Part shown: in pieces, positions 21,484 through 36,504 of the stretch | Layout: each line of letters begins with the position of its first letter | How positions within the stretch are numbered: position 1 is the stretch's first letter | Source of the DNA: Acutalibacteraceae bacterium | Lineage (GTDB): Bacteria > Bacillota > Clostridia > Oscillospirales > Acutalibacteraceae | Assembly: GCA_045642705.1 (NCBI GenBank) | Contig: JAZUJK010000007.1 | Location: 31,736 to 95,735, forward strand | Direction: 5' to 3' | Length of the DNA: 64,000 nucleotides | Notes under the pieces: generated by a model | What the model was told of the DNA's origin: nothing | Seen by the model: only the letters and a program-made list of their open reading frames with translations | Database searches by the model: none | Program-made: the position numbers and the translations under genes

Positions 21484-22974
21484 ATGGACACAAGATTTGC
21501 TATTTCCGAGTACCCAGATGCGATAGCCATCAACAAGGAACTCGATGAACTTATCAAGAAGCCAATCTATTCTCTCAACAGAACTGCCCTCAAGAATTAT
21601 GAGGAAGAGTATTTTGAGAAGAAGTGCAAGAAGTCTAAAGAGATGATTACAGAGGCTCGCGACTATATACCAGGTGGCGTACAGCACAACCTCGCTTTCA
21701 ACCACCCATTCCCTATCGTTATGACTAAGGCCGAGGGCGCTTATCTCTACGATATCGATGGTAACCGTTACTATGACCTTCTCCAGGCAGGCGGTCCTAC
21801 AATTCTCGGTTCTAACGATCCAGTAGTTCGTGACGCTGTAATCGACCTTCTCAATACATGTGGTCCATCAACAGGTCTTTTCCATGAGTATGAGATGAAA
21901 CTCGCAAAGAAGATTTCTGAATGTGTTCCATCAGTTGAGATGTTCCGTATGCTCGGTTCAGGTACTGAGGCTTGCATGTGCGCAGAGCGTGTAGCACGTC
22001 TTGCAACAGGCCACAAGAACATCTTAAAGATGGGTGGCGCATACCACGGCTGGTCAGATATGATTGCATGGGATATGCGTATTCCAGGCACAATGAATCT
22101 CCAGTCTAAGGGTATTCCTATGTATGCATTCCGTCATACACAGGGCTTCTTCCCAGGCGACCTCGAGGATCTCGAGAAAAAGCTCAAGCTCAACGAACTC
22201 AACGGCGGTACAGCTGGCGTATTCATCGAGCCAATCGGCCCAGAGTCAGCAACTCGTCCTGTTACTCGTGAATTTGTTAAGGGTGTTGAAGCACTCTGTC
22301 ATAAATATGGTGCACTTCTCATCTGTGATGAAGTTGTATCTGGTTTCCGTATCGGTCTTGCTGGTGCTCAGGGTTACTATGGTATCGACCCAGACATCAC
22401 AATCTTCGGTAAAGTAATCGCTGGCGGTTACCCAGGTGCAGGCGGAATCGGCGGTCACAAGGATGTTATGAAACATCTCGGCGCTGGCCTTGACGCATCT
22501 GGCAAGAAGGTTAAGAAGGCAATGTGCGGTGGTACAATGGCAGCTACTCCAATCTCTTGCGTTGCTGGATATACAGCAATCTGCGAGATTGAGAAGCGCA
22601 ACGCTTGCCAGGTAGCAGGCCAGATGGGTGACCGCCTCACTAAGGGCATCCAGGCTTCTATCAAGAAGTACAACCTCCCATTCGTTGCATTCAACGTTGG
22701 TTCAGTTTGTCACCTTGATACAGTTGGTACAATGCAGTTCGCAATCGACCTCAAGAAGGCTTGGGAGATTCCAGGCATCCTTGATCAGACAGGTGTTCGT
22801 CAGGTTGAGATGCAGAACATGGGTGCTGCATACATGGCAGAAGGCCTCGTAACACTTGCAGGCTCACGTCTCTATACATCTGCTGCTTATACAGAGGAAA
22901 TGATCGACGATTGTATCGCTCGTTTCGACAAGGTTCTCTCACAGTGTGAACTTATCCCAACTAAGAAGAAATAA
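21484..22974 (+). CDS. Class III (fold type I) PLP enzyme, glutamate-1-semialdehyde-2,1-aminomutase-like, with a ~60-aa N-terminal extension
   Basis: 496 aa with GGVQHN...AEGAYLYDIDGNRYYDL, GSGTEACMCAERVAR, ICDEVVSGFRIG and the PLP-lysine block IFGKVIAGGYPGAGGIGG (compare HemL LGKIIGGGLP). Confidence 0.8.
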   Translation: MDTRFAISEYPDAIAINKELDELIKKPIYSLNRTALKNYEEEYFEKKCKKSKEMITEARDYIPGGVQHNLAFNHPFPIVMTKAEGAYLYDIDGNRYYDLLQAGGPTILGSNDPVVRDAVIDLLNTCGPSTGLFHEYEMKLAKKISECVPSVEMFRMLGSGTEACMCAERVARLATGHKNILKMGGAYHGWSDMIAWDMRIPGTMNLQSKGIPMYAFRHTQGFFPGDLEDLEKKLKLNELNGGTAGVFIEPIGPESATRPVTREFVKGVEALCHKYGALLICDEVVSGFRIGLAGAQGYYGIDPDITIFGKVIAGGYPGAGGIGGHKDVMKHLGAGLDASGKKVKKAMCGGTMAATPISCVAGYTAICEIEKRNACQVAGQMGDRLTKGIQASIKKYNLPFVAFNVGSVCHLDTVGTMQFAIDLKKAWEIPGILDQTGVRQVEMQNMGAAYMAEGLVTLAGSRLYTSAAYTEEMIDDCIARFDKVLSQCELIPTKKK

Positions 22975-22987
22975 TTGAGGTACAAAT

Positions 22988-24196
22988 ATGGCTTATGAAA
23001 TAAACGAAGCAAAGGCACTGGTTGTTGAGGCTGGTAAAAAGCTCGTTGAATCAGGTCTTATTGCTAGAACTTGGGGTAACGTATCTGCTCGTATCTCAGA
23101 TACTCAGTTCGTTATCACTCCATCAGGCCGTGCCTATGAGACACTTACACCTGATGAAATCGTTGTTGTAAATATTGCTGACTGTGAGTATGAAGGTGAT
23201 ATCAAGCCATCATCTGAAAAAGGTGTTCATGCTGACGCATATAAACTCCGTCCAGATGTTGATTTCATCATTCACACTCATCAGGTCAATGCATCAATAA
23301 TCTCTGCAGCTGGTATCCCAATCAAGGATATCCCTGCCAAGGATGCTAAGGTTCTCGGACCTATCGTTCCAGTTGGTGCTTATGGCATGCCATCAACAGG
23401 CGCTCTTCGCGAAGGCGTTGCGGCTGCTGTTGAAATAAACCCTGAGAGCAAGGCAGTAATCATGAAGCATCACGGCGCACTCTGCATGGGTGCCAGCCTT
23501 GATGAGGCCTTCAAGATTGCTGAGACACTTGAGGCTCTCTGTGCCAAGGAAGTTGGTCGCCTAACAGAATTTGCTTGTGGCAAGAAGTACAAGCCAGACA
23601 ATCTCTATAAGGCTTTCGCTACAGTCTTCCCAGGCAGCGGCGACGCACCTGTTGATCTCGGATCATCCAAGCGCATCAGTGATGAATTATTCGAGCTCTC
23701 TATGGAGAATGGCACACACTATGTCTGCACAATGCAAGGTGTTGGCAAGAATGGTATCGCTCCTCGTGTTGCCCTTATCCACGCTGCTATCTACAGAAAT
23801 TGCAAAGTTAAATTCATCGTTCCTTTCGCATCAGATGATGTTAAGGCACTCTCATATGGAGTAGATAAGCTTACACCTTATCTCGACGACTTCGCTCAGA
23901 TTGCTGGTCGCGATGTCAAGGTATGCAACTGGCTTAGAGCTTCATATCGTACAGATGCAGATGAAATTGGCAAGGCAGCCAAGGGTCGTAGCGCAATCGT
24001 TATCCGTGGCCAAGGAGCTCTATGCACAGGCAACTCAATGTTCGATATCGACGCTGTAAAGCTCGTACTTGAGAAGGAGTGCAAGACTGAGATGTATTCA
24101 CTCATCAAGTCTGGTGTAAAATCACTCTCTCCTATCGACTGCGCAATAATGAGAACAATTTATGTACTCAAATATTCAAAGCAGGCTAGCAAATAA
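22988..24196 (+). CDS. Tandem class II aldolase/adducin-fold protein (intact N-terminal domain plus degenerate C-terminal domain)
   Basis: In aa 1-~200 I read TWGNVSARI, PSSEKGVHADAY, metal ligands IIHTHQ and MKHHGALCMG. Residues ~230-402 repeat the fold (ALIHAAIY..., VIRGQGALCTGNS) but have VPFAS where HTH should be. Confidence 0.75.
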   Translation: MAYEINEAKALVVEAGKKLVESGLIARTWGNVSARISDTQFVITPSGRAYETLTPDEIVVVNIADCEYEGDIKPSSEKGVHADAYKLRPDVDFIIHTHQVNASIISAAGIPIKDIPAKDAKVLGPIVPVGAYGMPSTGALREGVAAAVEINPESKAVIMKHHGALCMGASLDEAFKIAETLEALCAKEVGRLTEFACGKKYKPDNLYKAFATVFPGSGDAPVDLGSSKRISDELFELSMENGTHYVCTMQGVGKNGIAPRVALIHAAIYRNCKVKFIVPFASDDVKALSYGVDKLTPYLDDFAQIAGRDVKVCNWLRASYRTDADEIGKAAKGRSAIVIRGQGALCTGNSMFDIDAVKLVLEKECKTEMYSLIKSGVKSLSPIDCAIMRTIYVLKYSKQASK

Positions 24197-24206: not shown

Positions 24207-24245
24207 GAAAAGCCCTCAGTTTAAAAAACTGAGGGCTCTTTTTTA
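24207..24245. terminator. Bidirectional intrinsic terminator
   Basis: The stem AGCCCTCAGT / ACTGAGGGCT (24211-24220 / 24228-24237) is flanked by an A-run and a T-run. It lies between convergent operons. Confidence 0.75.
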
Positions 24246-24377
24246 TTCAATTTAATACAAGCAAGGGCCAAAGCCACTCAGCCTAAATATAGTTGTGTCC
24301 AATAATAGGAGATGAAATTAGACAAATGTGGGCTGTGGTGGTAAGCCCTTGACTGAGTGGTTAAAGTCCTGTGGTAA

Positions 24378-27284
24378 TTATTTAATTTCAACAACTACCT
24401 TGCTTGCATGTTTAATTGATGCGCCTTGGTTAGTTTCAGTAATGAAACGAAGTGGACCGTCACTATTCGCTACCAGTCCTGTGTATCCTTCATCATTTTC
24501 ATCAAATACGAGTGGATAACCCTGTATTGCATAGCAGACTATAATTGGTTTTCGTGTACCATCTGCAGCAACAATACCCTTTTCCAATGCATCCATAGAG
24601 AAAATTGATAAGAAATCTTTGGAATAGTTATCAGATGCGACTGCTGAAACCTTAATTGGATTAGAAAGATCTACATCTGGGCCTACAGAAGCCTTAACAA
24701 GTTTCCATAGATTGATACCTTCGCAGACACCAAAGTCACGAACGAAATATTCCGTTCTTTCAACAAGATCCGTCATATTTTCCAGTTCTTCCAGTGTATA
24801 TTCATATGTCTTCTCTCCAGCACCTGTCTTTAATACAACTGAGAAAGTTTCTTTAAGGAATGGTGTATAGAGATCAGATGCGCTATGGTTCCAAGATGCC
24901 ATTTCTACTGCTGTTACTTCTACTTTCGCAACTGACTTCACTTTCTTACTATCAGATACGAACATAAGTGGTCCGTTATCTGTAAGTAGAGGTGAGCCAA
25001 CTTTCTTAGCCTGTGTTGTATCACCAACTCCGAAAGCAAGAAGTGGTGCGGACTTACCCTTTTCACCACGCAAATCACCGAGTTTAAAGGTTTCTTTTGA
25101 ACCATCAATTGATGTGATTATTACTTCACTTGCATTATAACGGAGACCAACATTTAGAAGAAGATCATACATTGGAATACCTCTGTATCTCTCCTTACCA
25201 TAGTCAAATGTCTTGGCCATCTTTTGCATACCTTCAAGGTCAGCAACTGTATATGCCTTCTTGGCATTTACACCCTCACCATAGAACTCTATTGTCTTAC
25301 CAGCAAGTACAGCAGCATCACCCTTTAAATGAGCATACTGGTCTGGTTCCACATTGACAACAATAGATGTGAGATTCTTAACATACTTATTTCCATCTGC
25401 CGTTGGAACAATAACCATAAGTGGTCCGCCAACATTGTCAACTTTGTATTCAGCGGGGTCGTTCTTTCCAAATGGATTTAGCTTATATGATGCAACATAT
25501 CCATCGCTATTCTCGTTTGGTACAAGAGGAGAGCCGTTCTTGGCGAATGCCACAATCGACTTCTGCTCAAAGAGATCCGAGAGTTCTACTTTGAGTTCAT
25601 CCTTACCATTTGAGAAAGTTACAGTACCATTTGTACCCGGGATACCAATTATATCTGAAAGCATAAATTCAAGATTTACGCCCTCATAGATATTGTCATC
25701 ATATACTGCTTTAACCTTAGCAGATTTTATCTGATTACTAGTTACATCCTCACCGTAGATTAGATCTTCAATTTTAGAAACAGTATATGAAGCATCAGAC
25801 AATACAGAACCGTCAACATTATTAACCTTAATCTGTACTTTATCCTGTGTATACTCCTGCTGTGCTTCAACACGAGATCCACTATGTGTTGAGAGTGTAT
25901 AGTTCGCACCAACAACTATATTGGAAAGGAACTGAATCTGATTGGAGCCATTTGCATGATTATAATCAATCTTACCAAAAATGACTCTCATTGGGCCGCC
26001 ATCGTTAGCAAGTCCAGGAACAAATCCTTCATCCTCGCTTGTGATTGTATACGGATAATTATTTACGCCATATGCAAGCATTACTGGATAACCTGTCTTT
26101 ACAAGGTCTGCATTAGTTGATACATATGTGCCATCATCAAGGTCAGCTGAATTCTTTTTATAATAACCAAAATTATTAGGATCAGAAAGCTGAGCCATTG
26201 TAAATTTCTCAGCAGATGTGTATCCATCTGACGCAGAGAAAGTTACTTTTGTCTTTTCAGCGTCAGCTCCAAGAGCCTCAGCACTTGGAACGCCACAATA
26301 CTGAAGGAATTTATAAAGTTCAAGTCCCTCATACTCATTTACATACCAATATGTATTATTTGCGAGTGAGTAGAAGTCCTTATATCCGAGACCGCCTTCC
26401 TTAACGGAACCGTCTCTATTGTGTTCAACAAGGGCCTCAAGCTGTTTTACAGTAAAATCAAGTTCATAACCAAGTGTTTTACCGCCAACAGAGATAATAT
26501 AATTTGTGAGGTTTTCATTTGCATAAGCCTCATTTGTTGCCTCACTGTGCTTAAATCCAGGAGTCTTCTCCTCCTCTACATAGAGGTAAGCACAGTTTGA
26601 GAATGTCTTATAGTTCTTGTTACTACCATACTTTGTATAGTTATATACAAGTTTTAAGCATCCATCCTCATTGTTGAGAACATCAATAAATCCTTGTGTA
26701 TGCTCACCCTTATTGGCACCGCTAAATACGTAAGGTGCCACTGTCTTACAGGCCTCATCGCCGATACCATAAGTAATAAGAACAGGCTGTTTATCATCAT
26801 GAGCCTTCTTAATATCGGCAAGAGTTAGAGTTGCAACATCTTCACGGTTCGCATTCTTAAATACAACTTTATAAGCAGTATCAGTCATAGAAATAGAATT
26901 ATCGCCATCACCCATATTATTAAGCAGGTAATAAACGTCAATTCCTTCATATGCTTTAAGACCTGTCTTATCCTTATAAAGACCACGTACAAGTCCTGCA
27001 TCTGTGTTTTCAAGTTCTTTTGTTGAGAATGGTACAGACGAGTCCATACCAGGTCCTTCTATCGTAAGTGTTGCACCAGTTATCGCATTGATATTGTAAG
27101 GGGTTTCTCCACCCTTACCGCCATTTGTAATATGCTTAAATGGTGAATTTGAAAAATCAACATTAGAAAAAAGTTTTACATCATACTTGCCACAAGCTGT
27201 CAGGCAAAACATGAACATGACAGCAAAGACAACTAATGAAACTATCCTAAACAAATTAGCCTTTTTCATTGATTTTTTCTCCAT
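24378..27284 (-). CDS. Large surface lipoprotein built from five SUOX/YedY-type Moco-domain-like modules (function unknown)
   Basis: 968 aa with a signal peptide and lipobox (MFCLTAC-GK). Five tandem modules share the blocks [FY]-T-x-x-x-[LI]-E, Y-x-G-[IVL]-x-[LVM], DG, [LIV][LV]A[YF], GGP[LM] and K-x-[VL]-x-x-[IV]-x-V. It overlaps the upstream gene by 14-29 nt; an alternative start MKKANLF lies at 27269. Confidence 0.55.
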   Translation of the reverse strand: MEKKSMKKANLFRIVSLVVFAVMFMFCLTACGKYDVKLFSNVDFSNSPFKHITNGGKGGETPYNINAITGATLTIEGPGMDSSVPFSTKELENTDAGLVRGLYKDKTGLKAYEGIDVYYLLNNMGDGDNSISMTDTAYKVVFKNANREDVATLTLADIKKAHDDKQPVLITYGIGDEACKTVAPYVFSGANKGEHTQGFIDVLNNEDGCLKLVYNYTKYGSNKNYKTFSNCAYLYVEEEKTPGFKHSEATNEAYANENLTNYIISVGGKTLGYELDFTVKQLEALVEHNRDGSVKEGGLGYKDFYSLANNTYWYVNEYEGLELYKFLQYCGVPSAEALGADAEKTKVTFSASDGYTSAEKFTMAQLSDPNNFGYYKKNSADLDDGTYVSTNADLVKTGYPVMLAYGVNNYPYTITSEDEGFVPGLANDGGPMRVIFGKIDYNHANGSNQIQFLSNIVVGANYTLSTHSGSRVEAQQEYTQDKVQIKVNNVDGSVLSDASYTVSKIEDLIYGEDVTSNQIKSAKVKAVYDDNIYEGVNLEFMLSDIIGIPGTNGTVTFSNGKDELKVELSDLFEQKSIVAFAKNGSPLVPNENSDGYVASYKLNPFGKNDPAEYKVDNVGGPLMVIVPTADGNKYVKNLTSIVVNVEPDQYAHLKGDAAVLAGKTIEFYGEGVNAKKAYTVADLEGMQKMAKTFDYGKERYRGIPMYDLLLNVGLRYNASEVIITSIDGSKETFKLGDLRGEKGKSAPLLAFGVGDTTQAKKVGSPLLTDNGPLMFVSDSKKVKSVAKVEVTAVEMASWNHSASDLYTPFLKETFSVVLKTGAGEKTYEYTLEELENMTDLVERTEYFVRDFGVCEGINLWKLVKASVGPDVDLSNPIKVSAVASDNYSKDFLSIFSMDALEKGIVAADGTRKPIIVCYAIQGYPLVFDENDEGYTGLVANSDGPLRFITETNQGASIKHASKVVVEIK

Positions 27285-27861
27285 AGTATTTTTTTACATG
27301 ATAATCGAATAGAGACTTAATACATGACGTTATATTGCTTGTAGAAACCGATGCAGAGGTTACTGCATCAACATCTATTCCATCAACTTGTGTTTTATAT
27401 CCCTTCCAGGCATCAAAATCAGCTTTTGTCTTTCCTACCATAGGCTGTATGAAATTCGCGTCGAAATATTCTGGCGTGTAATTTGTTGTTCCATATGTCG
27501 GATTACTATCACCCCACATACCTTTTCCGTCTGAGAAGGTAATAGTTCTGATAGATGCTTTATCTGGAGTCTCCTTAGTATTAAGGATTTCTATATACAT
27601 AACTGAGTAATAGTTAACGCTTACATCCCTACAAGTACAAGAAATGAACGCCACTTGATAAGATGTAAACGTTTCATTTGCATACTCGAAAAGAATTACT
27701 GCAGTCTCATCTTCCTCTGTGCCACCAGAAGCGTAGTGCGTGTAATGGAACATATCATAAGGTTGATTCCCATCACTAGGACTCGCTTCACTTTTGGCAC
27801 ATCCGGTAAGACCTGTGATTGCAAGTATGAAGCATAATACTAAAGCAATACTTCGTCTCAT
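27256..27861 (-). CDS. FMN_bind-domain-like lipoprotein
   Basis: I prefer the start MRRSIALV (27861), which follows GGGAG; the ORF track start is 27873. The lipobox is LTGC-AK. The C-terminal layout ...FIQPMVGKTKADFDAWKG...VDGIDVDAVTSASVSTSNITSCIKSL matches FMN_bind domains ending in D-[AS]-x-[ST]-[GS]-A-[ST]. Confidence 0.5.
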   Translation of the reverse strand: MRRSIALVLCFILAITGLTGCAKSEASPSDGNQPYDMFHYTHYASGGTEEDETAVILFEYANETFTSYQVAFISCTCRDVSVNYYSVMYIEILNTKETPDKASIRTITFSDGKGMWGDSNPTYGTTNYTPEYFDANFIQPMVGKTKADFDAWKGYKTQVDGIDVDAVTSASVSTSNITSCIKSLFDYHVKKYYGEKINEKG

Positions 27862-27873
27862 AAAGTCTCCCAA

Positions 27874-28434
27874 TTATTCAGCAACAATTTCTACTACATA
27901 CTTTGCATAGAATTCAGATGTCTCTTCAAGGCATGGTGCGAACCAAACTGTTCCATCTTCGCCTGTCTCTTTATTCTTCTCAATAGCAACAAGAGTATAA
28001 GGAGCGTTCTCTTCTGTAATTACGAATGGTGCATCACTCTCGTGACCATCACTGCACTTAGCAGTAATCTTAGTTGCATTTTCACAACCAGCTGCCTTCA
28101 AAACGTCCTTGATTGCATATCCGCCATATGTAGCTTCCTTAGTATTGCCTGATGAATTTGTTGTTTCTACTGTAATCTTGTAGAAAGAGCAATCTTTAAG
28201 ATCTGCATTTGTGATAGCTTTACCATTTACTTTGAATGAGAAATCACCAACAGTTACTTTGTCTGTTGCATCTTTGATTTCTGGAGCACCATCATTAGTT
28301 GGCGCCTGGCTAGCTGGCTCTGAAGCTGCTGGCTTAGAAGGCTCTTCTGGAGCAGCTGGAGCCTTAGCGCATGCTGCAAAGCTAAGTACCATAACAAGTG
28401 AAAGTACGAGTGCGAGAATTTTTGAAAGTTTCAT
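27874..28434 (-). CDS. Lipoprotein with one copy of the module repeated in the 968-aa protein
   Basis: The lipobox is SFAAC-AK, followed by a Pro/Ala-rich linker. The domain reads FSFKVNGKAITNADLKD...ATYGGYAIKDVLKAAG...DG...YTLVAIEKN...AKYVVEIV. The RBS AAAGGGG lies upstream. Confidence 0.5.
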   Translation of the reverse strand: MKLSKILALVLSLVMVLSFAACAKAPAAPEEPSKPAASEPASQAPTNDGAPEIKDATDKVTVGDFSFKVNGKAITNADLKDCSFYKITVETTNSSGNTKEATYGGYAIKDVLKAAGCENATKITAKCSDGHESDAPFVITEENAPYTLVAIEKNKETGEDGTVWFAPCLEETSEFYAKYVVEIVAE

Positions 28435-28463
28435 TTAAATTACCCCTTTTTAATTAATATTTA

Positions 28464-29243
28464 TCAAATGTTAGGAGGAATAATAATATCCCTACCAACA
28501 TCATCTACAAATTTTAGTTTTAGTTTAGTTCCATAAACTCTCTTTAAGGTTTCTTCAGTAATTATTTTGTCGCTGTCACCAACCGTTAGGTGGCCATCTC
28601 TATCAAGGATAGCAGTTGTACCGCCAAGCATAATTGCATGATCGGGATTGTGCGTTGTAATAATAATTGCGTAGCCTTTCTCTTTTAATGATTTAATCAT
28701 CTTGAGAGTCTTTAACTGATTTCCAAAATCGAGATGAGACGTTGGCTCATCGAAAAGAATAGCGCGAGGCTCTTGGACAAGTGCTCTTGCAATTGTTGCC
28801 TGCTGACGCTCACCACCAGAAATTTCTGTATATGGCTTATCCGCGAGTCCAGCAATACCAACTTCTTCCAATGCTTTCTCAACCAATTCAAAATCATACG
28901 CATGTGGTCGTTCAAACATGCCAATCTTAGGAGCGCGTCCCATAAGTACAAAGTTGAACACTGTATATGAAAAAGCTGGTGTATGCGTCTGTGGCACGTA
29001 GCTTAAAATGGAAGCCACTTCCTTCGGCTTCATTTTAGTTGTATCCTTGCCACAGAGTTTGATTGTACCGCTATCTGGTTTGTTCAGTGCAGCAAGCAAA
29101 TTAAGTAATGTACTCTTGCCCGCTCCGTTTGGGCCGAGTATCGAAATTACTTGTCCTTCATCAAGTGTAAGTGACACATCGTGAAGTATTTGCCTATCGT
29201 TCTTGTTATACGAAAAGTTTATATTCTCTGCTTCTATAATCAT
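28464..29243 (-). CDS. ABC transporter ATP-binding protein, FecE/FhuC/BtuD type
   Basis: Walker A GPNGAGKST, signature ISGGERQQATIARAL and Walker B ILFDEPTSHLD. 259 aa. Confidence 0.85.
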   Translation of the reverse strand: MIIEAENINFSYNKNDRQILHDVSLTLDEGQVISILGPNGAGKSTLLNLLAALNKPDSGTIKLCGKDTTKMKPKEVASILSYVPQTHTPAFSYTVFNFVLMGRAPKIGMFERPHAYDFELVEKALEEVGIAGLADKPYTEISGGERQQATIARALVQEPRAILFDEPTSHLDFGNQLKTLKMIKSLKEKGYAIIITTHNPDHAIMLGGTTAILDRDGHLTVGDSDKIITEETLKRVYGTKLKLKFVDDVGRDIIIPPNI

Positions 29244-30316
29244 GTCAGTGTCTTCCTTTGCCTATATAGAAGTATTGCATAGAACGGAGCTCCGATAAGA
29301 CCTGTCAAGATGCTTACAGGCATCTCTGCAACACTTATCGTCCTTGTTATCGTATCAACAAGAAGTAAGAATATACCACCCATCAGTCCCGCTGCTGGGA
29401 TAAGTTTTGTATTGTTAGGACCAACTATCATTCGAGCAAAATGTGGAATTACAAGTCCTATCCAACCGATTGTACCTGAAATACAAACCGCACTTGCAGT
29501 CATCAGTGTTGCACAAGCAATAGCAATATTTCTTACAATCACAATGTTGGCACCGAGTGACTTGGCCTCTGACTCACCCATGGATAAGATATCTAGCCAC
29601 CAAGACATAGCAAAGAGAATGATACAAGGAATAATCATTGTCCAGATTACTCCACCTATCTCATCGAGTGTTACATATGAGAAACTACCCATTGTCCAAT
29701 AAGTGATTGCTGCAAGTTCAGTCTCCGGATCAGCAACATATTTAATGAAGCCCAATATTGAACTCATCGCTCCTCCGACAATTACACCGGACAGTACCAA
29801 CATAATATTGGAGTCTGATTTCATAACGGACGGAATCATAACAGTTATTGTTACTGCTAAAATGCCACCAATAAATGCAAAAATTGACAAATATAGTCCC
29901 GAGAGGCCCATAAGGATCGCAATTGCAGCACCTATACATGCACCATTTGACACGCCGAGGAAGTCAGGTGATACAAGTGGGTTTTTGAAAATGCTCTGGT
30001 ATGATACACCTGAAATAGCCAGCATCATTCCACATAGTACGCTTGCCACGATTCGCGGAATTCTAAGACCAATTACAACATTTCTTGTCATCTCGGAGTA
30101 GGAGCCACCCCTACCAAAGAGTTCTCCGAAAAGCACTTCAATACTTTCCTTTGGAGTAATAGGATACTTTCCAGCACAGAGAGCAATCACTATACAAATT
30201 GCAAGAATAGCAAGCAAGAGAATGTCAAAACCTATTGCATAAAAAGTGCTTCTATTTGATTTTTTTGTTACTTTAGAAGCTGTATCCAATCTCATCACCT
30301 GTGAATGTTCTTCCAT
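29240..30316 (-). CDS. FecCD-family ABC permease (iron-chelate/heme/cobalamin type)
   Basis: 358-aa polytopic ORF with RIPRIVASVLCGMMLAISG, GASIGAA-like blocks and the C-terminal GAPFYAILLYRQRK typical of FecCD/BtuC. The true start may lie downstream of 30316. Confidence 0.85.
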   Translation of the reverse strand: MEEHSQVMRLDTASKVTKKSNRSTFYAIGFDILLLAILAICIVIALCAGKYPITPKESIEVLFGELFGRGGSYSEMTRNVVIGLRIPRIVASVLCGMMLAISGVSYQSIFKNPLVSPDFLGVSNGACIGAAIAILMGLSGLYLSIFAFIGGILAVTITVMIPSVMKSDSNIMLVLSGVIVGGAMSSILGFIKYVADPETELAAITYWTMGSFSYVTLDEIGGVIWTMIIPCIILFAMSWWLDILSMGESEAKSLGANIVIVRNIAIACATLMTASAVCISGTIGWIGLVIPHFARMIVGPNNTKLIPAAGLMGGIFLLLVDTITRTISVAEMPVSILTGLIGAPFYAILLYRQRKTLT

Positions 30317-31316
30317 ATAGGAATGAATAATAATTATCTATCTTTTCCTGAAGCATATCATTTGGTACTTTATCAGGATATAAGCGATTCATCATATAGT
30401 ACATAGCTAATATGAAACCTGGGCCTGGCATATCCCAAGAATCAAATTTTGCAGGAATCTGAGAGATGCTATGAGTCTTGACAGCACTTACTGCGCTCCA
30501 AGCAGAATCCTCATAGAAATCTCCCATTTTATAATCAAGTACCGTAGAACTTGTAACGAAAATATATTCTGGGTTGAGTTCAAACACCTTTTCAACACCA
30601 CAGTCAGCCCAATATCTTTCCTCTTTACCTACGACACCATCCACAAGTGTCTTAGCACCAATACGCTTTAGCATTATTGTTTGAATCATATCTTCGCCAG
30701 CAATACGTGAAAAACGAGATCCAAGGCAAATAGCAGTAATCTTATCATCTTCCTTGATAGTTGCTGCAAGAGCATCTATCTCATCGAGTTCGCCTTGAAT
30801 ATAGTCATTAATCTCTTTTGCTCGTGCCTCAACACCAAAGATCTGTCCAAACATTGTATAAGCTTTCATTACTTCCTCTGGAGTCTCAGCAGACAAAGTA
30901 ATTGATGGAATACCAAGTGTGGCTGCTATTTCAATCTTAGGAGTATCTGAAATTCTACATATATAAACGCTAGGATTTATGGTTGCAAGTGCTTCTTGGT
31001 CAAGTGTATTCGTTGTACCAATATTACCTGTACCAACTATCACCTCATCACACAACCTATAGAATGACTTATTCTTAAAATTACATGCAACTACTCTATC
31101 AGAGAGGTTAAGCGTAGATAAGAATGGAGTTGCTACACCATAAGTTGAAGCAATAGTAGTTGACTTTGTATCCTTAGGCACTTGTACTTCCCGTCCCGCC
31201 ATATCTGTGACAGTTATTGTATTATTGTCAGTTTGCGACTCAGTCTGTCTCCCTGCACAAGAAGCTAGAGAGAAACACATAACGATTACGAGCAGTAAAG
31301 AGATATACTTTTTCAA
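30273..31316 (-). CDS. Peripla_BP_2-type substrate-binding lipoprotein (siderophore/heme/cobalamin class)
   Basis: The lipobox is SLASC-AG. It has the two-lobe pattern with the terminal ...SWDMPGPGFILAMYYM. I set the start at the TTG (31316) after GGAGG. The longer ORF (to 31367) would translate through the leader terminator hairpin. Confidence 0.8.
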   Translation of the reverse strand: MKKYISLLLVIVMCFSLASCAGRQTESQTDNNTITVTDMAGREVQVPKDTKSTTIASTYGVATPFLSTLNLSDRVVACNFKNKSFYRLCDEVIVGTGNIGTTNTLDQEALATINPSVYICRISDTPKIEIAATLGIPSITLSAETPEEVMKAYTMFGQIFGVEARAKEINDYIQGELDEIDALAATIKEDDKITAICLGSRFSRIAGEDMIQTIMLKRIGAKTLVDGVVGKEERYWADCGVEKVFELNPEYIFVTSSTVLDYKMGDFYEDSAWSAVSAVKTHSISQIPAKFDSWDMPGPGFILAMYYMMNRLYPDKVPNDMLQEKIDNYYSFLYGRTFTGDEIGYSF

Positions 31317-31328
31317 AATAATTCCTCC

Positions 31329-31365
31329 AAAACAAAAAGTGGACTTCTCAGAGAGAGAAGTCCAC
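31329..31365 (-). terminator. Intrinsic terminator inside the 5' leader (attenuator)
   Basis: The stem GUGGACUUCUC / GAGAAGUCCAC (31365-31355 / 31349-31339) is followed by UUUUUGUUUU. It sits 10 nt upstream of the RBS of the SBP gene. Confidence 0.65.
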
Positions 31366-31494
31366 ATATGTTATCTAGTATACTCTGCCCTCTTTTCAAT
31401 AAGGAAGGTGAATTCGTTTCCAAATCCGCCCCGGTCAAGAACCCATGGCAAAATGCTTTAGGGTAAATGACTCGAAAGCTATTATTTAATTTAC
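31366..31494 (-). promoter_or_regulatory. Unclassified structured leader (candidate riboswitch/attenuator aptamer region)
   Basis: ~130 nt lie between the predicted TSS and the terminator. The 5' AUCUAG can pair with CUAGAU ~130 nt downstream, enclosing the hairpin GGUAAAU...AUUUACC and a GC-rich core (GACCGGGGCGGAUUUGGAAACGAAUUCACC). I see no B12 box and no other riboswitch signature I recognise. Confidence 0.35.
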
Positions 31495-31500
31495 CTAGAT

Positions 31501-31529
31501 ATTATACAACACAATTGTATCAAAAGCAA
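31501..31529 (-). promoter_or_regulatory. Promoter of the ABC/lipoprotein operon
   Basis: TTGCTT (31529-31524), 17 nt, TATAAT (31506-31501). Confidence 0.55.
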
Positions 31530-31542: not shown

Positions 31543-32796
31543 TTAATCGAGGCCACGCTCATCAAAGCGGAATGCAGTCTCAAGAAGTGTGTTGATGCCT
31601 GCCTTGATTGTGCGCTCATCGAGATTGTCTGCTGTGTCAAGACGTGTGTGATAATAGCGAGCTGGAGTTGGATCCATTGCTGCGAGGCAGCAAGCTTTCA
31701 TACCACCCTGAGCAAGAGCTGCAGCATCTGATGAACCAAAGAATACATTTGCATAAGGAAGGTCAAGACCAGCAGTCTTAGAACACTCCTTAACAAGTGC
31801 AGCTGTCTTGGCATCAAGCTTTACAGTGCCTGTCATATCCTTGTTATAGATACCCATGAAATCAAAGTCACGAAGTGTATCTGTGCATACTGCGATTGTC
31901 TCGATACCTGAGTCGGCATATTCCTTGGCATGCTTCTTAACGAAAGCCTTGGCACCGCGGAGACCAGCCTCCTCAGATGACATTGAAATAGATACAACCT
32001 CTGTATTTTCGAAACGGATATCATTGTCATTTAAGTACTGCATAACAGCCATAGATGCGAAAACACCTGAGAGGTTATCGTTAGCGCCATCAACACAAAT
32101 GCTCCAGTTCATAAAGAAGAGAACGAGTATCATTGCAGGAACTGAAAGAATTGCGAAAATCTTGGCAACGATAGTAAACCAAGTAGCTGCAACGCCACAT
32201 ACTGTGAGGATTACGATAACAAGATCTGCAACGAGGCATACAATGCCAGTTGCGATAATTGCTGTAAGTAAATGTCCGCCACCGAGATATGTATAGCGCC
32301 ACTCCCAAGCTGAATCAACATGTCCAGAGAAAATGATACGGCGTTTTGTCTCGCCTGCAGCTTTTCTTGTACATACTACATTATATGCATCCTTCTTAGG
32401 GAAAAGTGGATCGAGCAATTCCTTATAGAAAAGAAACTCACCGAGAATACATACTACAGAAATAACTGTTAGGATAAGTGCAACAATGGCAAGAGCTGTT
32501 ATTGGCTTTACGAAGAAGTAGATGATGAGAAGAACTGCTGTAATTAGCATGCATATACCATCTACAAGTACCCATCCCATAAAAGCCTTAGGATGAAGTG
32601 TAAAGTCCTCTTTATCAATCTTATCAGCAACTTTACCCATGTGGTCAATTACATAATCCTGAGCCTTGTGCTCCTCTGGATAACCAGATGCACGACCACC
32701 GCACATATCAATTACTGTCTTAATCTGAGTCTTGACATAATCTGTATACTTATCAAGTTGCTCATCATAGTTTTTTACGCTTTCTTTTGCAAGCAT
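31543..32796 (-). CDS. M28-family metallopeptidase with membrane-spanning insertions (paralog 2)
   Basis: The M28 ligand set is readable: FSGHVDSAW, DGANDNLSG, SSEEAGLRG, GSSDAAA and YYHTRLD. About 6 TM helices are inserted before and between GHVDS and DGANDN. Confidence 0.65.
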   Translation of the reverse strand: MLAKESVKNYDEQLDKYTDYVKTQIKTVIDMCGGRASGYPEEHKAQDYVIDHMGKVADKIDKEDFTLHPKAFMGWVLVDGICMLITAVLLIIYFFVKPITALAIVALILTVISVVCILGEFLFYKELLDPLFPKKDAYNVVCTRKAAGETKRRIIFSGHVDSAWEWRYTYLGGGHLLTAIIATGIVCLVADLVIVILTVCGVAATWFTIVAKIFAILSVPAMILVLFFMNWSICVDGANDNLSGVFASMAVMQYLNDNDIRFENTEVVSISMSSEEAGLRGAKAFVKKHAKEYADSGIETIAVCTDTLRDFDFMGIYNKDMTGTVKLDAKTAALVKECSKTAGLDLPYANVFFGSSDAAALAQGGMKACCLAAMDPTPARYYHTRLDTADNLDERTIKAGINTLLETAFRFDERGLD

Positions 32797-32814
32797 TAAA
32801 AAACATCTCCCTTT

Positions 32815-32848
32815 TATATTATAAGAGGCTAGGCATTCGCCTAGCCTC
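32815..32848 (-). terminator. Hairpin / weak terminator between the two M28 paralogs
   Basis: The stem GAGGCTAGGC / GCCTAGCCTC (32825-32834 / 32839-32848) is followed on the minus strand by UUAUAAUAUAAAA. The U-tract is poor, and the sequence may also carry a TATAAT box. Confidence 0.4.
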
Positions 32849-32860
32849 AGTTAAATCAAA

Positions 32861-34102
32861 TTACTGCTTTGCGCCCTCATCGAACTTATCAAGTACACGA
32901 ACAGATACTGCATAGCAATCTGCAAGTCCCTTGTTATCCATGTTGTCATATGAGTCACGGCGTGTATGATAGTAATTCTCAAGCTTGTGGTTAAGTCCTG
33001 TAATACCTGTTGAACGGAAACCGCCCTGTGCAAATGCTGCATTATCTGTAGCACCGCCAAGTGGTGGAACCATACCCTTCTTGCACTGGATATTAAGTTC
33101 CTGTGCTGCTTCCATGAAGAGGTCAGATACATCCTTATCAGCCTTAACTGTTGCATTGAGGTCACGATAGTTAGTAAGAAGATACTTAGGATCGTGAATT
33201 GTATCATAAGAATAAATGAATGTTGGAACATCCTGGAACTCACCCTTGTGAGCTTCGCACCATGCCTTAGAACCACGGAGACCAGCTTCCTCTGAACCGG
33301 AGAGGATAACGCCTACTTCTGTGTTCTCAAGCTCGATGCCTGCATCCTTCATAGCCTTGAGGATTGCAATACCCATGTAGCAACCAGAAAGGTTGTCGTT
33401 AGCACCATCAACGATGCGATAACGGTTCCACATAAAGAACATATAAATCCAGAAAGGAACGAAGATAAGTCCGATATAAGCCATCTTAGCAATTGTAGAT
33501 GTAAGACCAGCTACAAGAATAGCGATATCAAGACCAAGATAATAAAGTGTACCAATAGCTGAGATAATGATAAGTCCCTCAAAGAGAATACCACCACCGA
33601 GGTAGTTTGCTGGCCACTCCCAAGCTGCGTCCTGGTGACCGTTGAAGAAAATTCTTCTCTTAACTTCACCCTTGCAAGACTTGATAGCTGTAACGTTAGT
33701 ACCAACCTTCTTTGGGAACATAAAGTCTACAACTTTCTTGTAGAGACCGAACTGAAGAAGTGCAAGAATCCAACCGAAAAGAATACAAGCAATACCAACG
33801 ATTGCTGCAACCTTGCTACCTGGGCAAAGTGGGATAAGAATAAGTGCGATGAAGCAAAGTGTGAATGTGATATGAATCCAGCCATAGAATGAACCTGGGT
33901 TCTCATCAAATGACTCGATGTCAACCTTTTCACATCCGCAGTCATTCTTCAATACATCTGCCATGTATTCACTTGCAAGTCTCTCACCCTCTGAACCTGG
34001 ATCTCTCTTAGGCAAATTCTTACAAATGTGAGTAATCTCGTTTACGATATACTCTGCGCTTTTGTCCTTCTCTGCAATTAAAGCGTCAAATTTTTCACTC
34101 AT
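32861..34102 (-). CDS. M28-family metallopeptidase with membrane-spanning insertions (paralog 1)
   Basis: It has the same motif set as its neighbour: FNGHQDAAW, DGANDNLSG, GSEEAGLRG, GATDNAA and YYHTRRD, with the same TM architecture. Confidence 0.65.
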   Translation of the reverse strand: MSEKFDALIAEKDKSAEYIVNEITHICKNLPKRDPGSEGERLASEYMADVLKNDCGCEKVDIESFDENPGSFYGWIHITFTLCFIALILIPLCPGSKVAAIVGIACILFGWILALLQFGLYKKVVDFMFPKKVGTNVTAIKSCKGEVKRRIFFNGHQDAAWEWPANYLGGGILFEGLIIISAIGTLYYLGLDIAILVAGLTSTIAKMAYIGLIFVPFWIYMFFMWNRYRIVDGANDNLSGCYMGIAILKAMKDAGIELENTEVGVILSGSEEAGLRGSKAWCEAHKGEFQDVPTFIYSYDTIHDPKYLLTNYRDLNATVKADKDVSDLFMEAAQELNIQCKKGMVPPLGGATDNAAFAQGGFRSTGITGLNHKLENYYHTRRDSYDNMDNKGLADCYAVSVRVLDKFDEGAKQ

Positions 34103-34201: not shown

Positions 34202-36487
34202 TTACATATCGAGATAAGAGTCAGAATAGAGCTCGTTATTCTTGAATATGTCACAGGACTTAATTGTCTCCATAAGTCTCTTGTCACATGGGTTTACGAT
34301 AGCAGATGTAAGACCCTGCATCATACACATAGCAACGAGAGCTGAGTCCATAATTGGACGAACTTCCTTAGGAGCGCCGTTTGAGTTGTTAGAAAGACCA
34401 CCTGTTGACTTGAGTCCCTCATCAGCGAACATCTTGATAGCAGCAAGTACATCCATCTGCTTATCCTGCATGCCCTTTACAACGAGGAAGAGTGGGTCAA
34501 ACCAGAGATCATCTGACTCCATGCCGAGTGACATACCGAGGTCGAGCATCTTATGGCAGTGAGCCATGCGCTCCTCGTTGTCCTTAGCAATACCATCAGC
34601 TGAGCAAAGTGCGATACAGATAGCATCATTTGCAGCAGCAAGATTGATGTTATCAATACGTGAGCCAGCATCAGCTGAGTTTACGATTGGCTTACCATTT
34701 GTACGGTTATATACCTTGATACCAGCCTCGATAGCCTTCTTGTTAGCTGTATCGAGAGCAAGTGGCACGTTGTTGAAGTTCTCCTGGAGAAGTTTAACAG
34801 CCCAAGTCATAAGCTCAGGACCATTTGACTCTGCAGGTCCGATATTAACATCAAGATATGTTGCGCCGGCAGCAATCTGCTCAGCAGCTCTCTTGAGGAT
34901 TGGCTCTGGATCCATGTTATCCATAGCAGCCTTGATTGTAGGGCTGATGCAGTGGATACGCTCACCAATTGTTACGAACTTGTTAGAATCAACATTTCTT
35001 GTCTTGTACTGAACGCCCATATCAACAACCTTGATTTCTGGGATGCTTGCAGCGATCTTATCGAAATCAAGTGGTGCGTTCTCGTCTACCACCTTGGCCT
35101 CAGCCGTAGGTGCATCAGCCTTCTGAGCAGCAACTGCCTCTGCAGCCTTCTTATACTCGCCATCCTTGAGATACTTAACGATCTCAACAGCTTCACGAGT
35201 ACCAACTACAACATTCCACTCAGGAAGTTTGTCAGCGATTTCGCCCTTCATAACTGCAACCTTACCAGGGAGGATAAGTGTGCGGCTGTTGATCTTAGAT
35301 GCTACATCGAATTCCTCAAATGTCTTCTTAACAGAAGATGATGAGAACTTACCAGCAGCCCAAGCTGTAAGTACTGACATACCAGATGCATCAGTGATAA
35401 GAAGGTTTACTGGAACCTTAGAACGCTCAAGTTCACCTGTAACAAGGAAATATGTAAGAGCGAAGTCAACTGTGAGCATAACTGGATCATCAGGACCTGC
35501 ACCATTGATAGGATAGATACCTGGCTCAACCTTCATTGGCTTCTGAGGGTCAGTGTAGATATTCTGACGGAGACCATAAAGTGGAAGAGCCTCAGCCATT
35601 GTGATGTTTTCCATAACAATGATTGAACCATATTTAAGTGTGAAGAGTGCAGCATAAGCTGTCTGGAGATGTAAATCACCCTTAGCAAACTTAGGAAGTT
35701 TTACGATTGAAGGATAACCGAGTGACTTATCGCCATCCTTGATAGCGCCACGACGGCAGAATACAGCATTCTTGAGTGTTTCCTTAATATCAGCACCTGT
35801 GATGTTGATGATAAGATTCTTATTGCCTGCATCCTCGAGTGCCTTGATTGTGTCATAGATGTCCTCGATGCTGTCGCCACATACGCCAAGAGCGATGCCA
35901 GCAGCAGTAGCGATTTCGTTCATTGCGGCAAAGTTGTCCTTGTTAGCACCGCAGAGAACTGGCTTAGTATCCTTAATAGCGTCGATAGCAGCTTTTGCAA
36001 CAGCAGCATCTGTTGTCTCAACGATAACAGTACGGCCTGTTGCAGCAGCCTTCTTAGCGAGTTCTACGAGCTTGTCGCCCTCGCCGTGAACAAATACTGT
36101 CTCAACGAATTCGCGCTCGCCGATACGCTCGTAATCAATTTTCTTGAGTCCTTCAAGTTTTTCATCAATTGCAGCATCGTCCATGCATGTGCATACAGGA
36201 ACTGCAAATACGTTCTTGGAAACGAGTGTCTTCTCGTGACGGTAGAGAACTGTCTCACCACCGAGTGTGATTTCAGCATCTCCTGCGCCGATTTTGATTG
36301 TCTTCATTGCTGGAGCTGTAGCCTCAGAAAGAAGAGCCTTAGCCTCGTCAGACATATGTGGGCACTGATCAATTGATACTGCACCCTGAGCAACCTTCAT
36401 GCAGAAAGCCATACATGTTGGGCTTCCGCACTCCTTACAGTTTGTCTTAGGAGATAACTTGAAAATATCTAGTCCTTTAACAGCCAT
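34202..36487 (-). CDS. acsC-acsE: Fusion of the corrinoid iron-sulfur protein large subunit (AcsC) with the methyl-H4folate:corrinoid methyltransferase (AcsE/MeTr, pterin-binding domain)
   Basis: In aa 1-~445 I read the N-terminal 4Fe-4S motif CKECGSPTCMAFC...QCPH followed by the AcsC/CdhE TIM-barrel and Rossmann-type body. Residues ~446-502 are an Ala/Lys-rich linker. Residues ~503-761 read as a pterin-binding barrel (GERIHC..., GATYLDVNIG, ALDT, VNSA, FDPL, GLSNNSNG). It is a single uninterrupted 761-codon ORF. Confidence 0.8.
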   Translation of the reverse strand: MAVKGLDIFKLSPKTNCKECGSPTCMAFCMKVAQGAVSIDQCPHMSDEAKALLSEATAPAMKTIKIGAGDAEITLGGETVLYRHEKTLVSKNVFAVPVCTCMDDAAIDEKLEGLKKIDYERIGEREFVETVFVHGEGDKLVELAKKAAATGRTVIVETTDAAVAKAAIDAIKDTKPVLCGANKDNFAAMNEIATAAGIALGVCGDSIEDIYDTIKALEDAGNKNLIINITGADIKETLKNAVFCRRGAIKDGDKSLGYPSIVKLPKFAKGDLHLQTAYAALFTLKYGSIIVMENITMAEALPLYGLRQNIYTDPQKPMKVEPGIYPINGAGPDDPVMLTVDFALTYFLVTGELERSKVPVNLLITDASGMSVLTAWAAGKFSSSSVKKTFEEFDVASKINSRTLILPGKVAVMKGEIADKLPEWNVVVGTREAVEIVKYLKDGEYKKAAEAVAAQKADAPTAEAKVVDENAPLDFDKIAASIPEIKVVDMGVQYKTRNVDSNKFVTIGERIHCISPTIKAAMDNMDPEPILKRAAEQIAAGATYLDVNIGPAESNGPELMTWAVKLLQENFNNVPLALDTANKKAIEAGIKVYNRTNGKPIVNSADAGSRIDNINLAAANDAICIALCSADGIAKDNEERMAHCHKMLDLGMSLGMESDDLWFDPLFLVVKGMQDKQMDVLAAIKMFADEGLKSTGGLSNNSNGAPKEVRPIMDSALVAMCMMQGLTSAIVNPCDKRLMETIKSCDIFKNNELYSDSYLDM

Positions 36488-36504
36488 TTTCTTCTACCTC
36501 CTTC

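Follow-up and report, generated by a model that had tools for sequence, protein, structure and literature searches.

A Riboswitch-Led Operon Joining a Type II ABC Importer to Three Lipoproteins in an Acutalibacteraceae Bacterium: a Candidate System for Tungsten or Molybdenum Cofactor Supply

The DNA analyzed here (the window) is a stretch of 64,000 nucleotides (nt) from an Acutalibacteraceae bacterium (GenBank assembly GCA_045642705.1, contig JAZUJK010000007.1, positions 31,736 to 95,735 of the forward strand). Its minus strand carries a six-gene operon at window positions 24208 to 31529, including promoter and end terminator, which encodes a type II ABC importer and three further lipoproteins. 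The leader of this operon contains a riboswitch of the molybdenum cofactor (Moco) family in its P3-less variant, which is named for the tungsten cofactor (Wco or Tuco). The operon very probably serves the supply of tungsten (W) or molybdenum (Mo) cofactor rather than that of iron, heme, or vitamin B12. More specifically, we give an even chance to a capture-and-relay import of W or Mo species, most likely pterin-bound, that is induced by cofactor starvation. The link between this riboswitch class and an importer is already known, and the lipoprotein layer has been undescribed so far. An earlier note on this DNA, made from the letters of the sequence, had outlined the operon and proposed ferric chelates, heme, or corrinoid as its cargo.

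The riboswitch, the operon, and the importer

The aptamer was identified by Rfam (cmscan) as RF01055 at 31373 to 31489 of the minus strand, with a score of 61.3 bits against a gathering score of 36 (E = 2.7e-12). The alignment covers the full model (positions 1 to 135) without truncation, the P3 positions being deleted, and it is the only Rfam match in the whole window. Aligned aptamer copies from relatives are 115 to 118 nt long, and nine of nine lack P3. The sigma-70-type promoter at 31501 to 31529, read directly from the sequence as TTGCTT-17 nt-TATAAT, has a perfect consensus -10 box and a -35 box that matches at three of six positions, owing to which a consensus promoter scan did not list it. 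An intrinsic terminator (31339 to 31365, minus strand), consisting of an 11-bp stem followed by TTTTTGTTTT, lies 7 nt past the aptamer and is the expression platform of the riboswitch; the ribosome-binding site and a TTG start codon come next. The related locus L073 has the same promoter layout and the same promoter-aptamer-terminator arrangement in its leader. The promoter and a leader with its own terminator had been described in the earlier note, but the nature of the leader as a Moco/Wco riboswitch had been missed.

The presence of P3 divides this riboswitch class, and the P3-less members track Tuco/Wco metabolism (Regulski et al. 2008; PMC2408646). The P3-less RF01055 leader thus wires the operon to the W/Mo-pterin cofactor pool and not to iron, heme, or cobalamin. 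In Eubacterium limosum, five P3-less riboswitches lie upstream of WOR1, tupABC, focA, fetABC1, and fetABC2; that of fetABC1 consists of an aptamer and a terminator hairpin and is de-repressed under W limitation, and the authors took fetABC1 and fetABC2 as a case of iron uptake governed by the tungsten cofactor (Thorgersen et al., PNAS 2024/25; PMC11725836). Because fetABC1/2, like the window operon, have a P3-less RF01055 directly upstream of an "Fe ABC-type" importer, the association of this riboswitch with such an importer is not new, and fetABC1 provides an experimental analogue for OFF polarity. By this analogy, the riboswitch of the present organism would repress the operon through its intrinsic terminator, so that transcription would stop in the leader while the W/Mo-pterin cofactor is plentiful and the six genes would be expressed when it is scarce.

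The six minus-strand open reading frames (ORFs) lie exactly at the coordinates reported before. In the direction of transcription they encode a substrate-binding lipoprotein (SBP) of 347 aa (30273 to 31316), a permease of 358 aa (29240 to 30316), an ATPase of 259 aa (28464 to 29243), and lipoproteins of 186 aa (27874 to 28434), 205 aa (27256 to 27873), and 968 aa (24378 to 27284). The genes are closely packed, with the permease and ATPase genes overlapping by 4 nt, the 186- and 205-aa genes abutting at 27873/27874, and the 205- and 968-aa genes overlapping at 27256 to 27284, the last two junctions being as first described. A bidirectional intrinsic terminator at 24208 to 24240 (minus strand; a 15-bp stem with 6 G-C pairs and a T-run) closes the block, and a terminator scan found none comparable inside it. 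The block from 24208 to 31529 is a single operon, in agreement with the one transcription unit assumed at first. The SBP gene almost certainly starts with the TTG at 31316, which has GGAGG 7 nt upstream (31324 to 31328) and gives a product beginning with MKKYISLLL...LASC, rather than with the ATG at 31367, because the latter lies inside the terminator stem. The lipoboxes of the four exported proteins (LASC, FAAC, LTGC, and LTAC) are all of the Sec type, and none of their signal peptides, such as MKLSKILALVLSLVMVLSFAAC and MKKANLFRIVSLVVFAVMFMFCLTAC, contains a twin-arginine motif.

The type II importer set is complete within the operon, and all of its components score above the Pfam thresholds: the class III SBP matches Peripla_BP_2 (53.5 bits, E = 2.9e-14), the permease, which is of the FecCD/BtuC type, matches FecCD (278 bits, E = 1e-82), and the ATPase matches ABC_tran (114.6 bits, E = 6.9e-33). 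These matches and the lipoboxes support the description of the operon as a type II ABC importer extended by three Sec-type lipoproteins. None of the substrate-specific NCBIfam equivalog cutoffs (BtuC, FhuB, FecC/D, and IsdE) was reached, with scores of 192.9 against a cutoff of 334 for BtuC, at most 175 against cutoffs of at least 554 for FhuB, and 34.8 against 298.65 for IsdE. The SBP belongs to a tight clade (60 matches). Its best PDB match is an uncharacterized SBP, 4hn9 (E = 3.5e-32), and MolA (3psa) is matched weakly, over residues 236 to 338 only (E = 1.3e-6).

It is improbable that the importer carries an iron chelate, heme, or corrinoid, with the Wco riboswitch merely co-regulating iron for Fe-rich tungstoenzymes. 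Pointing in that direction are the homology-based name of one distant SBP relative in its source annotation ("ABC-type Fe3+-hydroxamate transport"), the weak IsdE and BtuC matches, the Tuco riboswitches reported upstream of the two "Fe ABC-type" transporters of E. limosum, and the higher cellular Fe of that species on lactate (PMC11725836). However, the substrate-specific models lie far below their cutoffs, and an OFF switch relieved by W starvation would have the wrong polarity for Fe supply during tungstoenzyme synthesis. Moreover, SBP relatives are fused to a SUOX/PruR-like module, and the genes that recur near the cluster in related loci are Mo/W-cofactor genes (moaA, moaC, moeA, XdhC, AOR, and TupA-like genes), with no iron, heme, or cobalamin genes recurring there. 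The cargoes named in the earlier note therefore find no backing. Corrinoid had been favored on account of a nearby CODH/ACS cluster and was rejected: the CODH/ACS genes are neighbors only in the window, their proximity not being conserved in related loci, and no cobalamin riboswitch was found by Rfam anywhere in the 64 kb.

The three accessory lipoproteins

The 968-aa lipoprotein consists of a conserved N-terminal region and five modules that resemble the Moco domain of sulfite oxidase (SUOX), namely, M1 (26550 to 27032), M2 (25875 to 26477), M3 (25320 to 25847), M4 (24870 to 25319), and M5 (24381 to 24869), all on the minus strand. Pfam Oxidored_molyb scores 44.8 bits on M4, against a gathering score of 24. 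A BLASTP self-comparison showed no repeats, and profile methods were needed to reveal them; hhalign found the five modules mutually homologous (probabilities of 94 to 99%, E = 1e-7 to 1e-19), as had been proposed in the earlier note. The full protein had no significant match among PDB sequences, and the top PDB matches of the M4 profile were all SorA, the Moco subunit of sulfite dehydrogenase (E = 0.06), in an alignment spanning the W/Y-R-G-[VI]-P-L...DG...LAY...PL core. The Tyr of Y-x-G is conserved in most modules, and M2 conserves N-x-Y-x-G (N316 and Y318).

The 186-aa lipoprotein combines a low-complexity linker with one PruR-like module, a truncated SUOX fold, at residues ~53 to 186. Its family consists wholly of "hypothetical" proteins from metagenome-assembled genomes of Oscillospiraceae and other Clostridia. 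Unlike the 968-aa protein, it stays below the Oxidored_molyb threshold (15.8 bits); most of its homologs have two modules and lie above it (38.4 bits, with precomputed PF00174 matches). The AlphaFold2 model of the 186-aa protein (pLDDT of 81.9) has a sole significant Foldseek neighbor in the PDB, the pterin-binding protein PruR (7KOM; E = 6.5e-4, probability of 1.0, target-normalized TM score of 0.62), while its profile gave nothing significant against PDB sequences and no sequence-level match to PruR. Between the 186-aa module and M4, hhalign gave a probability of 85.7% (E = 5.5e-6). The 968-aa modules are not picked up by an iterated hidden Markov model (HMM) built on the 186-aa module, and the idea of one module shared in one and five copies is therefore reduced to five homologous copies in the 968-aa protein and a remote relative in the 186-aa protein.

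The first reading had seen no conserved Cys in these modules. This holds at the Mo-ligand position, where neither the 968-aa nor the 186-aa family conserves a Cys, and the M4 family alignment contains no invariant Cys at all. It does not hold elsewhere: the 968-aa family has two conserved non-lipobox Cys residues, C209 and C854, which are found not ahead of the W/Y-x-G core but at positions equivalent to "GGP" and "Y-x-G". An A-P-C motif is present in most homologs of the 186-aa protein. The modules remain SUOX-fold-like without the catalytic Cys, as had been supposed, and noncatalytic binding of a ligand is proposed both for the five in the 968-aa protein and for the PruR-like one.

The above-threshold Oxidored_molyb match would also accord with a real extracytoplasmic Moco/Wco oxidoreductase (MsrP/YedY-like) that is fed by covalent flavins, its synthesis being tied by the riboswitch to cofactor supply and the ABC system importing its substrate or product. 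The flavinylation motifs described below are typical of extracytosolic electron transfer (PMC8238504), and Moco riboswitches also precede genes of cofactor-using enzymes (PMC2408646). Nevertheless, this is the least probable of the readings weighed here. Exported molybdoenzymes need the twin-arginine translocation (Tat) pathway, their cofactor being inserted in the cytoplasm, whereas the window proteins have Sec lipoboxes and no twin-arginine motif. The Mo-ligand Cys is absent, Pfam found neither a Mo-co_dimer nor a heme domain, and structurally the closest protein is PruR, a nonenzymatic binder. That the module also occurs fused to an SBP speaks for a role in binding and transport. A standard Moco enzyme was rejected on the grounds of Sec export and the missing Cys ligand.

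PruR is a periplasmic pterin-binding protein with a truncated SUOX fold, nonenzymatic and devoid of the Mo-ligand Cys (PDB 7KOM/7KOS; PMC11194511). Its pterin is sandwiched by residues of an Asn-x-Tyr motif and by a Trp in place of the Cys, and its gene forms a pruR-dcpA operon; it partners the cyclic di-GMP enzyme DcpA in signaling and has been described only in Proteobacteria (PMC13259868). The 186-aa protein resembles it in being small and secreted, with a predicted truncated SUOX-like fold and no Mo-ligand Cys. In contrast to PruR, the modules of the window type belong to lipoproteins of Clostridia, occur in one, two, or five copies, are linked to ABC genes or fused to an SBP, and stand under a Moco/Wco riboswitch. 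The likeness to PruR could also be read as uptake or sensing of a non-Moco pterin of the monapterin, neopterin, or folate type, unrelated to W or Mo, since PruR pockets fit small pterins and the niche is open, no pterin transporter being known (PMC13259868). We consider this very improbable because the riboswitch is of the Moco/Wco class and not of the tetrahydrofolate or another class, the neighboring genes are moa/moe, XdhC, AOR, and TupA-like genes, and no DcpA gene was found at the related loci whose gene content was inspected.

The 205-aa lipoprotein (probable start, ATG at 27861) appears to be a divergent FMN_bind-like domain for which flavinylation is plausible. In the family alignment, an invariant SCTCRD motif (27625 to 27642, minus strand) is followed by the flavinylation-type motif DAVTSAS (27349 to 27369, minus strand), which had been noticed earlier and represents the family consensus D-A-V-[TS]-G-A-[ST]. 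The family is highly conserved and small, with 111 cluster representatives among 1.84 billion proteins. The FMN_bind assignment first given to this protein has in its favor the motif and distant relatives, whose homologous region comes up to the Pfam threshold of 22 bits (22.3 bits in P0215 and 21.8 bits in P0206, in both of which C-terminal Rhodanese domains are fused to the 205-like region); against it, the 205-aa protein itself stays below the threshold (17.3 bits), and no structural match was obtained. Its AlphaFold2 model has a pLDDT of 83.4, and its profile gave nothing significant against PDB sequences. The N terminus of the 968-aa protein, with an FMN_bind score of 13.6 bits, contains a second such motif, N-A-I-T-G-A-T (27069 to 27095, minus strand), within the pattern ...KHxxNGG...PYN[IV]DAITGATxTVEGP that is found in nearly all 39 family members; in that family, the motif reads D/N-A-I-T-G-A-T, a canonical ApbE flavinylation motif. 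Judging from these motifs, the 205-aa protein and the 968-aa N terminus would both be flavinylated. The 205-aa protein shares with the ApbE-flavinylated FMN_bind proteins NqrC, RnfG, and PplA a D-x-x-[ST]-G-A-[ST] motif at the start of a C-terminal helix and its nature as a secreted lipoprotein (PMC8238504). It differs from them in its subthreshold Pfam score, in the lack of a structural match to the solved domains, and in the additional invariant SCTCRD.

Related loci in Clostridia

When one genome of each species was searched with the 205-aa family, 72 loci emerged, which are cited here by L numbers. Oscillospiraceae account for most of them, and the remainder belong to Christensenellales, Peptococcaceae, Anaerovoracaceae, and related groups. 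The samples were taken from gut, rumen, and digesters, and the isolate Christensenella sp. MSJ-20 is among the sources. Complete genomes in which the cluster is present include NZ_CP076563, OY763424, and OW818648. By tblastn, all six window genes are present in ~30 of the 72 loci, and the gene set, known from about 75 species-level loci, occurs in three gene orders. The commonest, [riboswitch]-968-SBP-permease-ATPase-(two-module 186)-LP229-205-NTPase, in which LP229 is a 229-aa lipoprotein, differs from that of the window. The window's own six-gene order recurs in L073. In the third architecture (L075 to L077), the 186-type module forms the N terminus of the SBP, and a MotA/ExbB and DUF2149 pair is added. 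Five SBP relatives with such an N-terminal fusion were found (55 to 60% identical; HMM E = 1e-33 to 1e-36), and their genes adjoin moa genes or follow riboswitches. Conserved content, shuffled order, and fusion together are strong evidence that these proteins act together. Synteny of the six genes is thus kept in relatives, and together with the module-SBP fusions it strongly supports the earlier proposal that an extracytoplasmic layer captures cargo for the importer.

The neighbors of the cluster in its closest relatives (L001 to L010 and L074) are Mo/W-cofactor genes. In these loci, the operon additionally encodes an XdhC-type Moco chaperone, a metallophosphoesterase, a radical S-adenosylmethionine (SAM) protein, and a 386-aa protein, and a second riboswitch follows that drives moaA-moaC-mog-moeA-moeA(PBP_like). 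In L075, the fused SBP gene lies directly after a moa/moe operon, and in six loci the cluster is flanked by a tungsten aldehyde:ferredoxin oxidoreductase (AOR) gene. In the 64-kb window itself, no Mo/W enzyme, moa/moe gene, or Tup/Mod transporter was found. The added genes are inserted between the 186 and 205 genes in L003 (5283 to 9225) and also in L002, L004 to L006, L010, and L067; the radical-SAM protein is AmmeMemoRadiSam-like, the 386-aa protein belongs to no family, and the window lost these genes or never had them.

Rfam found a P3-less RF01055 element directly upstream of the cluster in six of seven sampled distant loci. A covariance model built from these copies detected 18 copies in 15 loci, plus that of the window. 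The first such model covered the P4 stem only and served for the census, not for structural claims; it agreed with Rfam on nine loci where Rfam found no element at its gathering score upstream of the 968 homolog. Of the 44 surveyed loci in which DNA ahead of the first cluster gene is available, 13 have the riboswitch at the head of the cluster; so do L073, L074, L076, and L077, which were fetched separately. Two copies each are present in L065, L071, L076, and L077, and canonical clusters without an RF01055 element at Rfam's gathering score were seen in L012, L013, L014, L017, L018, L020, L023, L024, and L026. The link between riboswitch and cluster is frequent and phylogenetically broad, not universal.

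LP229 is encoded in 53 of the 72 loci, always adjoining the 205 gene (e.g., L015, 9309 to 9998; L003, 9226 to 9948; and L073, 5583 to 6287). It has no Pfam family, and its profile gave only subthreshold rhodanese and FNR matches against the PDB. For the 186-, 205-, and 968-aa lipoproteins of the window, there is no model in NCBIfam. Against the Rhodanese domain of a natural 205-like-Rhodanese fusion, hhalign gave a probability of 97% (E = 1e-10), with the invariant loop FLMC-GGGGY aligned to the active-site loop FLMC-AGGTR, Arg being replaced by Tyr. On this alignment, LP229 is predicted to be a rhodanese-like protein of the extracytoplasmic space, divergent but with the catalytic Cys retained. 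In L073, whose operon is otherwise identical to that of the window, LP229 and a second 205 paralog lie just upstream of the riboswitch. Orphan LP229-205 pairs were observed beside a 2,492-aa giant protein with a MerR regulator upstream (L064, 4616 to 12094) and beside a Tat-signal DUF169 protein (L058, 10542 to 11459). In L048, the pair is part of a riboswitch-controlled operon with a PBP_like_2 SBP, a type I permease (BPD_transp_1), and an ATPase; the best NCBIfam match of this SBP is TupA (E = 2e-38), and in L007 these Tup-like genes come after the 968 homolog.

These Tup-like associations bear on metal oxyanion uptake, in which a MolABC-like type II importer would take up tungstate, molybdate, or their thio-forms. 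The lipoproteins would then bind whichever forms occur in the sulfidic contents of the gut and turn them into transportable species; for example, the rhodanese-like Cys loop would bind or desulfurate thiotungstate or thiomolybdate, and the flavin domains would recycle persulfide or change the redox state. The rhodanese alignment of LP229, the natural 205-like-Rhodanese fusions, the inclusion of tupABC among the known targets of the riboswitch class, and the weak PDB match of the SBP to MolA, a class III molybdate/tungstate binder, accord with this view. We regard it as rather unlikely, however. The similarity to MolA is partial and weaker than that to uncharacterized SBPs, the fusion partner of the SBP is a pterin-binder-like module and not an oxyanion-binding domain, six to seven SUOX/PruR-like modules would be left without a role, and the window operon has no LP229. 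In general, the cargo of type II importers consists overwhelmingly of bulky chelates.

Further genes were observed in and around these loci. At L075 (7860 to 10004), L076 (7085 to 9278), and L077 (4208 to 6401), a ~400-aa protein, a MotA/ExbB-like channel, and DUF2149 are encoded directly upstream of the SBP, which, in a Gram-positive background, suggests a proton-motive accessory to uptake. L068 and L071, the loci of Christensenella sp. MSJ-20 (NZ_CP076563), keep the 968, SBP, two-module 186, LP229, and 205 genes, with one riboswitch in L068 and two in L071; permease and ATPase genes are absent at both loci, and the SBP there may work with a transporter whose genes lie elsewhere or may do something else. 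SAM-dependent methyltransferases (Methyltransf_31/25) recur in or beside the cluster (L074, 2362 to 7029; L048, 8396 to 9250; L007, 5490 to 8246; and L002, 8180 to 9031); one of these proteins, of 553 aa, is a fusion of a ModA-like SBP_bac_11 domain with a methyltransferase, and in L074 a methyltransferase gene comes after the riboswitch.

In the window, a class III aminotransferase (496 aa) and a 402-aa protein with two class II aldolase/adducin domains (21484 to 24196, plus strand) converge on the bidirectional terminator and are apparently unrelated to the operon. Directly upstream of the riboswitch promoter are two M28 peptidase paralogs in tandem (417 and 413 aa; 31543 to 34102, minus strand), both with hydrophobic N-terminal halves; an M28 gene is also near the L073 cluster (18629 to 19849), and the peptidases are otherwise not conserved. 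Beyond them is a complete CODH/ACS (Wood-Ljungdahl) cluster (34202 to 46106, minus strand), in which a 761-aa protein with iron-sulfur (FeS), CdhD, and Pterin_bind domains has the appearance of an AcsC-AcsE-type fusion. This cluster also encodes a second CdhD, two CooC-type ATPases, DUF3786, RACo, AcsB, and a Prismane/CODH subunit. The window was found to contain no formate dehydrogenase.

Proposed cofactor capture and its significance

In the W/Mo-cofactor reading, the three Sec-exported lipoproteins would sit on the outer face of the membrane, beside the type II importer. The SUOX/PruR-like modules would bind the ligand and pass it to the SBP, from which it would be pumped in by the FecCD/ATPase unit. 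Candidate pterin cargoes are Wco or Moco, metal-free molybdopterin (MPT), and precursor or breakdown pterins. The 205-aa protein and the 968-aa N terminus may supply extracytoplasmic redox chemistry via flavin, either to keep an oxidation-prone pterin or dithiolene reduced or to free the ligand from carriers; in most relatives, the rhodanese-like lipoprotein would join these flavinylation-motif proteins, and the XdhC and phosphoesterase of relatives could handle the imported cofactor. We infer both the identity of the ligand and the direction of the relay.

That the cargo is of the pterin type is close to an even call, at best. It is favored because the importer class carries bulky organometallic chelates, because Cys-less binding modules of the SUOX/PruR-like kind are strung together in the surface proteins, because five relatives have one such module joined to the SBP in a single chain, and because cofactor riboswitches typically govern salvage transporters for their own ligand. 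Somewhat short of even is the prospect that the system is the first bacterial uptake route for the pterin-based Mo/W cofactor or for metal-free pterin, with Wco, Moco, or MPT coming from other gut microbes or food.

Several observations weigh against cofactor capture. According to the literature, Moco would not fit into the small pocket of PruR (PMC13259868). In close relatives, genes for de novo synthesis of MPT lie beside the cluster, so salvage is not obligatory. The LP229-205 pair of L048 stands in a TupABC-type operon without a SUOX-like module, an arrangement that fits metal-oxyanion processing as well as cofactor salvage, and LP229, present in 53 of the 72 loci, is absent from the window operon. 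The riboswitch is absent from about two-thirds of the loci with upstream DNA. With regard to the redox part, Foldseek found no significant PDB neighbor for the AlphaFold2 model of the 205-aa protein and no FMN_bind structural match. Unlike the NqrC, RnfG, and PplA systems, the cluster has no ApbE, which was found neither among the window ORFs scanned nor among the conserved neighbor families, and no membrane electron donor.

Known systems resemble the window operon in part. The E. limosum fetABC1/2 operons share its riboswitch and, unlike the window, are reported as ABC genes only, without SUOX/PruR-, FMN_bind-, or rhodanese-like lipoproteins; no E. limosum protein, including FetA, was among the 60 SBP relatives or the 72 loci. 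MolABC of Haemophilus influenzae (HI1470-72) has the same combination of a Peripla_BP_2 SBP, a FecCD-type permease, and an ATPase, with MolA binding molybdate and tungstate, but it has no accessory lipoproteins, its MolA match to the window SBP is weak and extends over about 100 residues, and we know of no Moco riboswitch associated with it. TupABC belongs to the same P3-less riboswitch regulon class, and the TupA-like operon of L048 carries the LP229-205 pair; TupABC is, however, a type I importer with an oxyanion-specific PBP_like_2 SBP and is unrelated in sequence to the window SBP and permease. The logic of multimodule binders feeding a type II importer is that of the Isd relay, in which NEAT surface proteins pass their cargo to the SBP IsdE and the FecCD permease IsdF, and B12 capture by BtuG/BtuFCD follows the same logic, with a cofactor-sensing riboswitch repressing the operon. 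The binders of these systems (NEAT and a beta-propeller, respectively) are unrelated to the SUOX/PruR-like modules, the regulator and the presumed cargo differ, and neither system has a counterpart of the flavinylation-motif or rhodanese-like proteins.

To our knowledge, TupABC, ModABC, and WtpABC are the only established W/Mo routes into prokaryotes, and we know of no identified transporter for Moco or any pterin in any organism. The lipoprotein layer is not described in a survey of flavinylation, which also omits Mo, W, and pterin systems (PMC8238504), in a survey of riboswitch regulons (PMC3766115), in a 2026 paper on WOR (PMC13328260), or in a 2026 review of pterins, according to which no pterin transporter is known (PMC13259868). 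Sharing of Moco between bacteria and an animal (Caenorhabditis elegans) is known.

At least 70 species of Clostridia from gut, rumen, and digesters share the cluster, every component of which is annotated as hypothetical, and it is a concrete candidate for cofactor-level or alternative W/Mo acquisition. Christensenella sp. MSJ-20, which is cultured and has a complete genome with the cluster and two riboswitches, offers an experimental entry point. If cofactor capture is correct, the "iron transporters" under Tuco riboswitches in E. limosum would be reinterpreted, PruR-like pterin-binding modules would extend from proteobacterial signaling to transport in Firmicutes, and extracytosolic flavinylation would gain a new functional context. 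In the gut, tungsten enzymes such as AOR/WOR and formate dehydrogenase are important for making short-chain fatty acids and for detoxifying aldehydes, and the acquisition of W therefore bears on the physiology of the microbiome.

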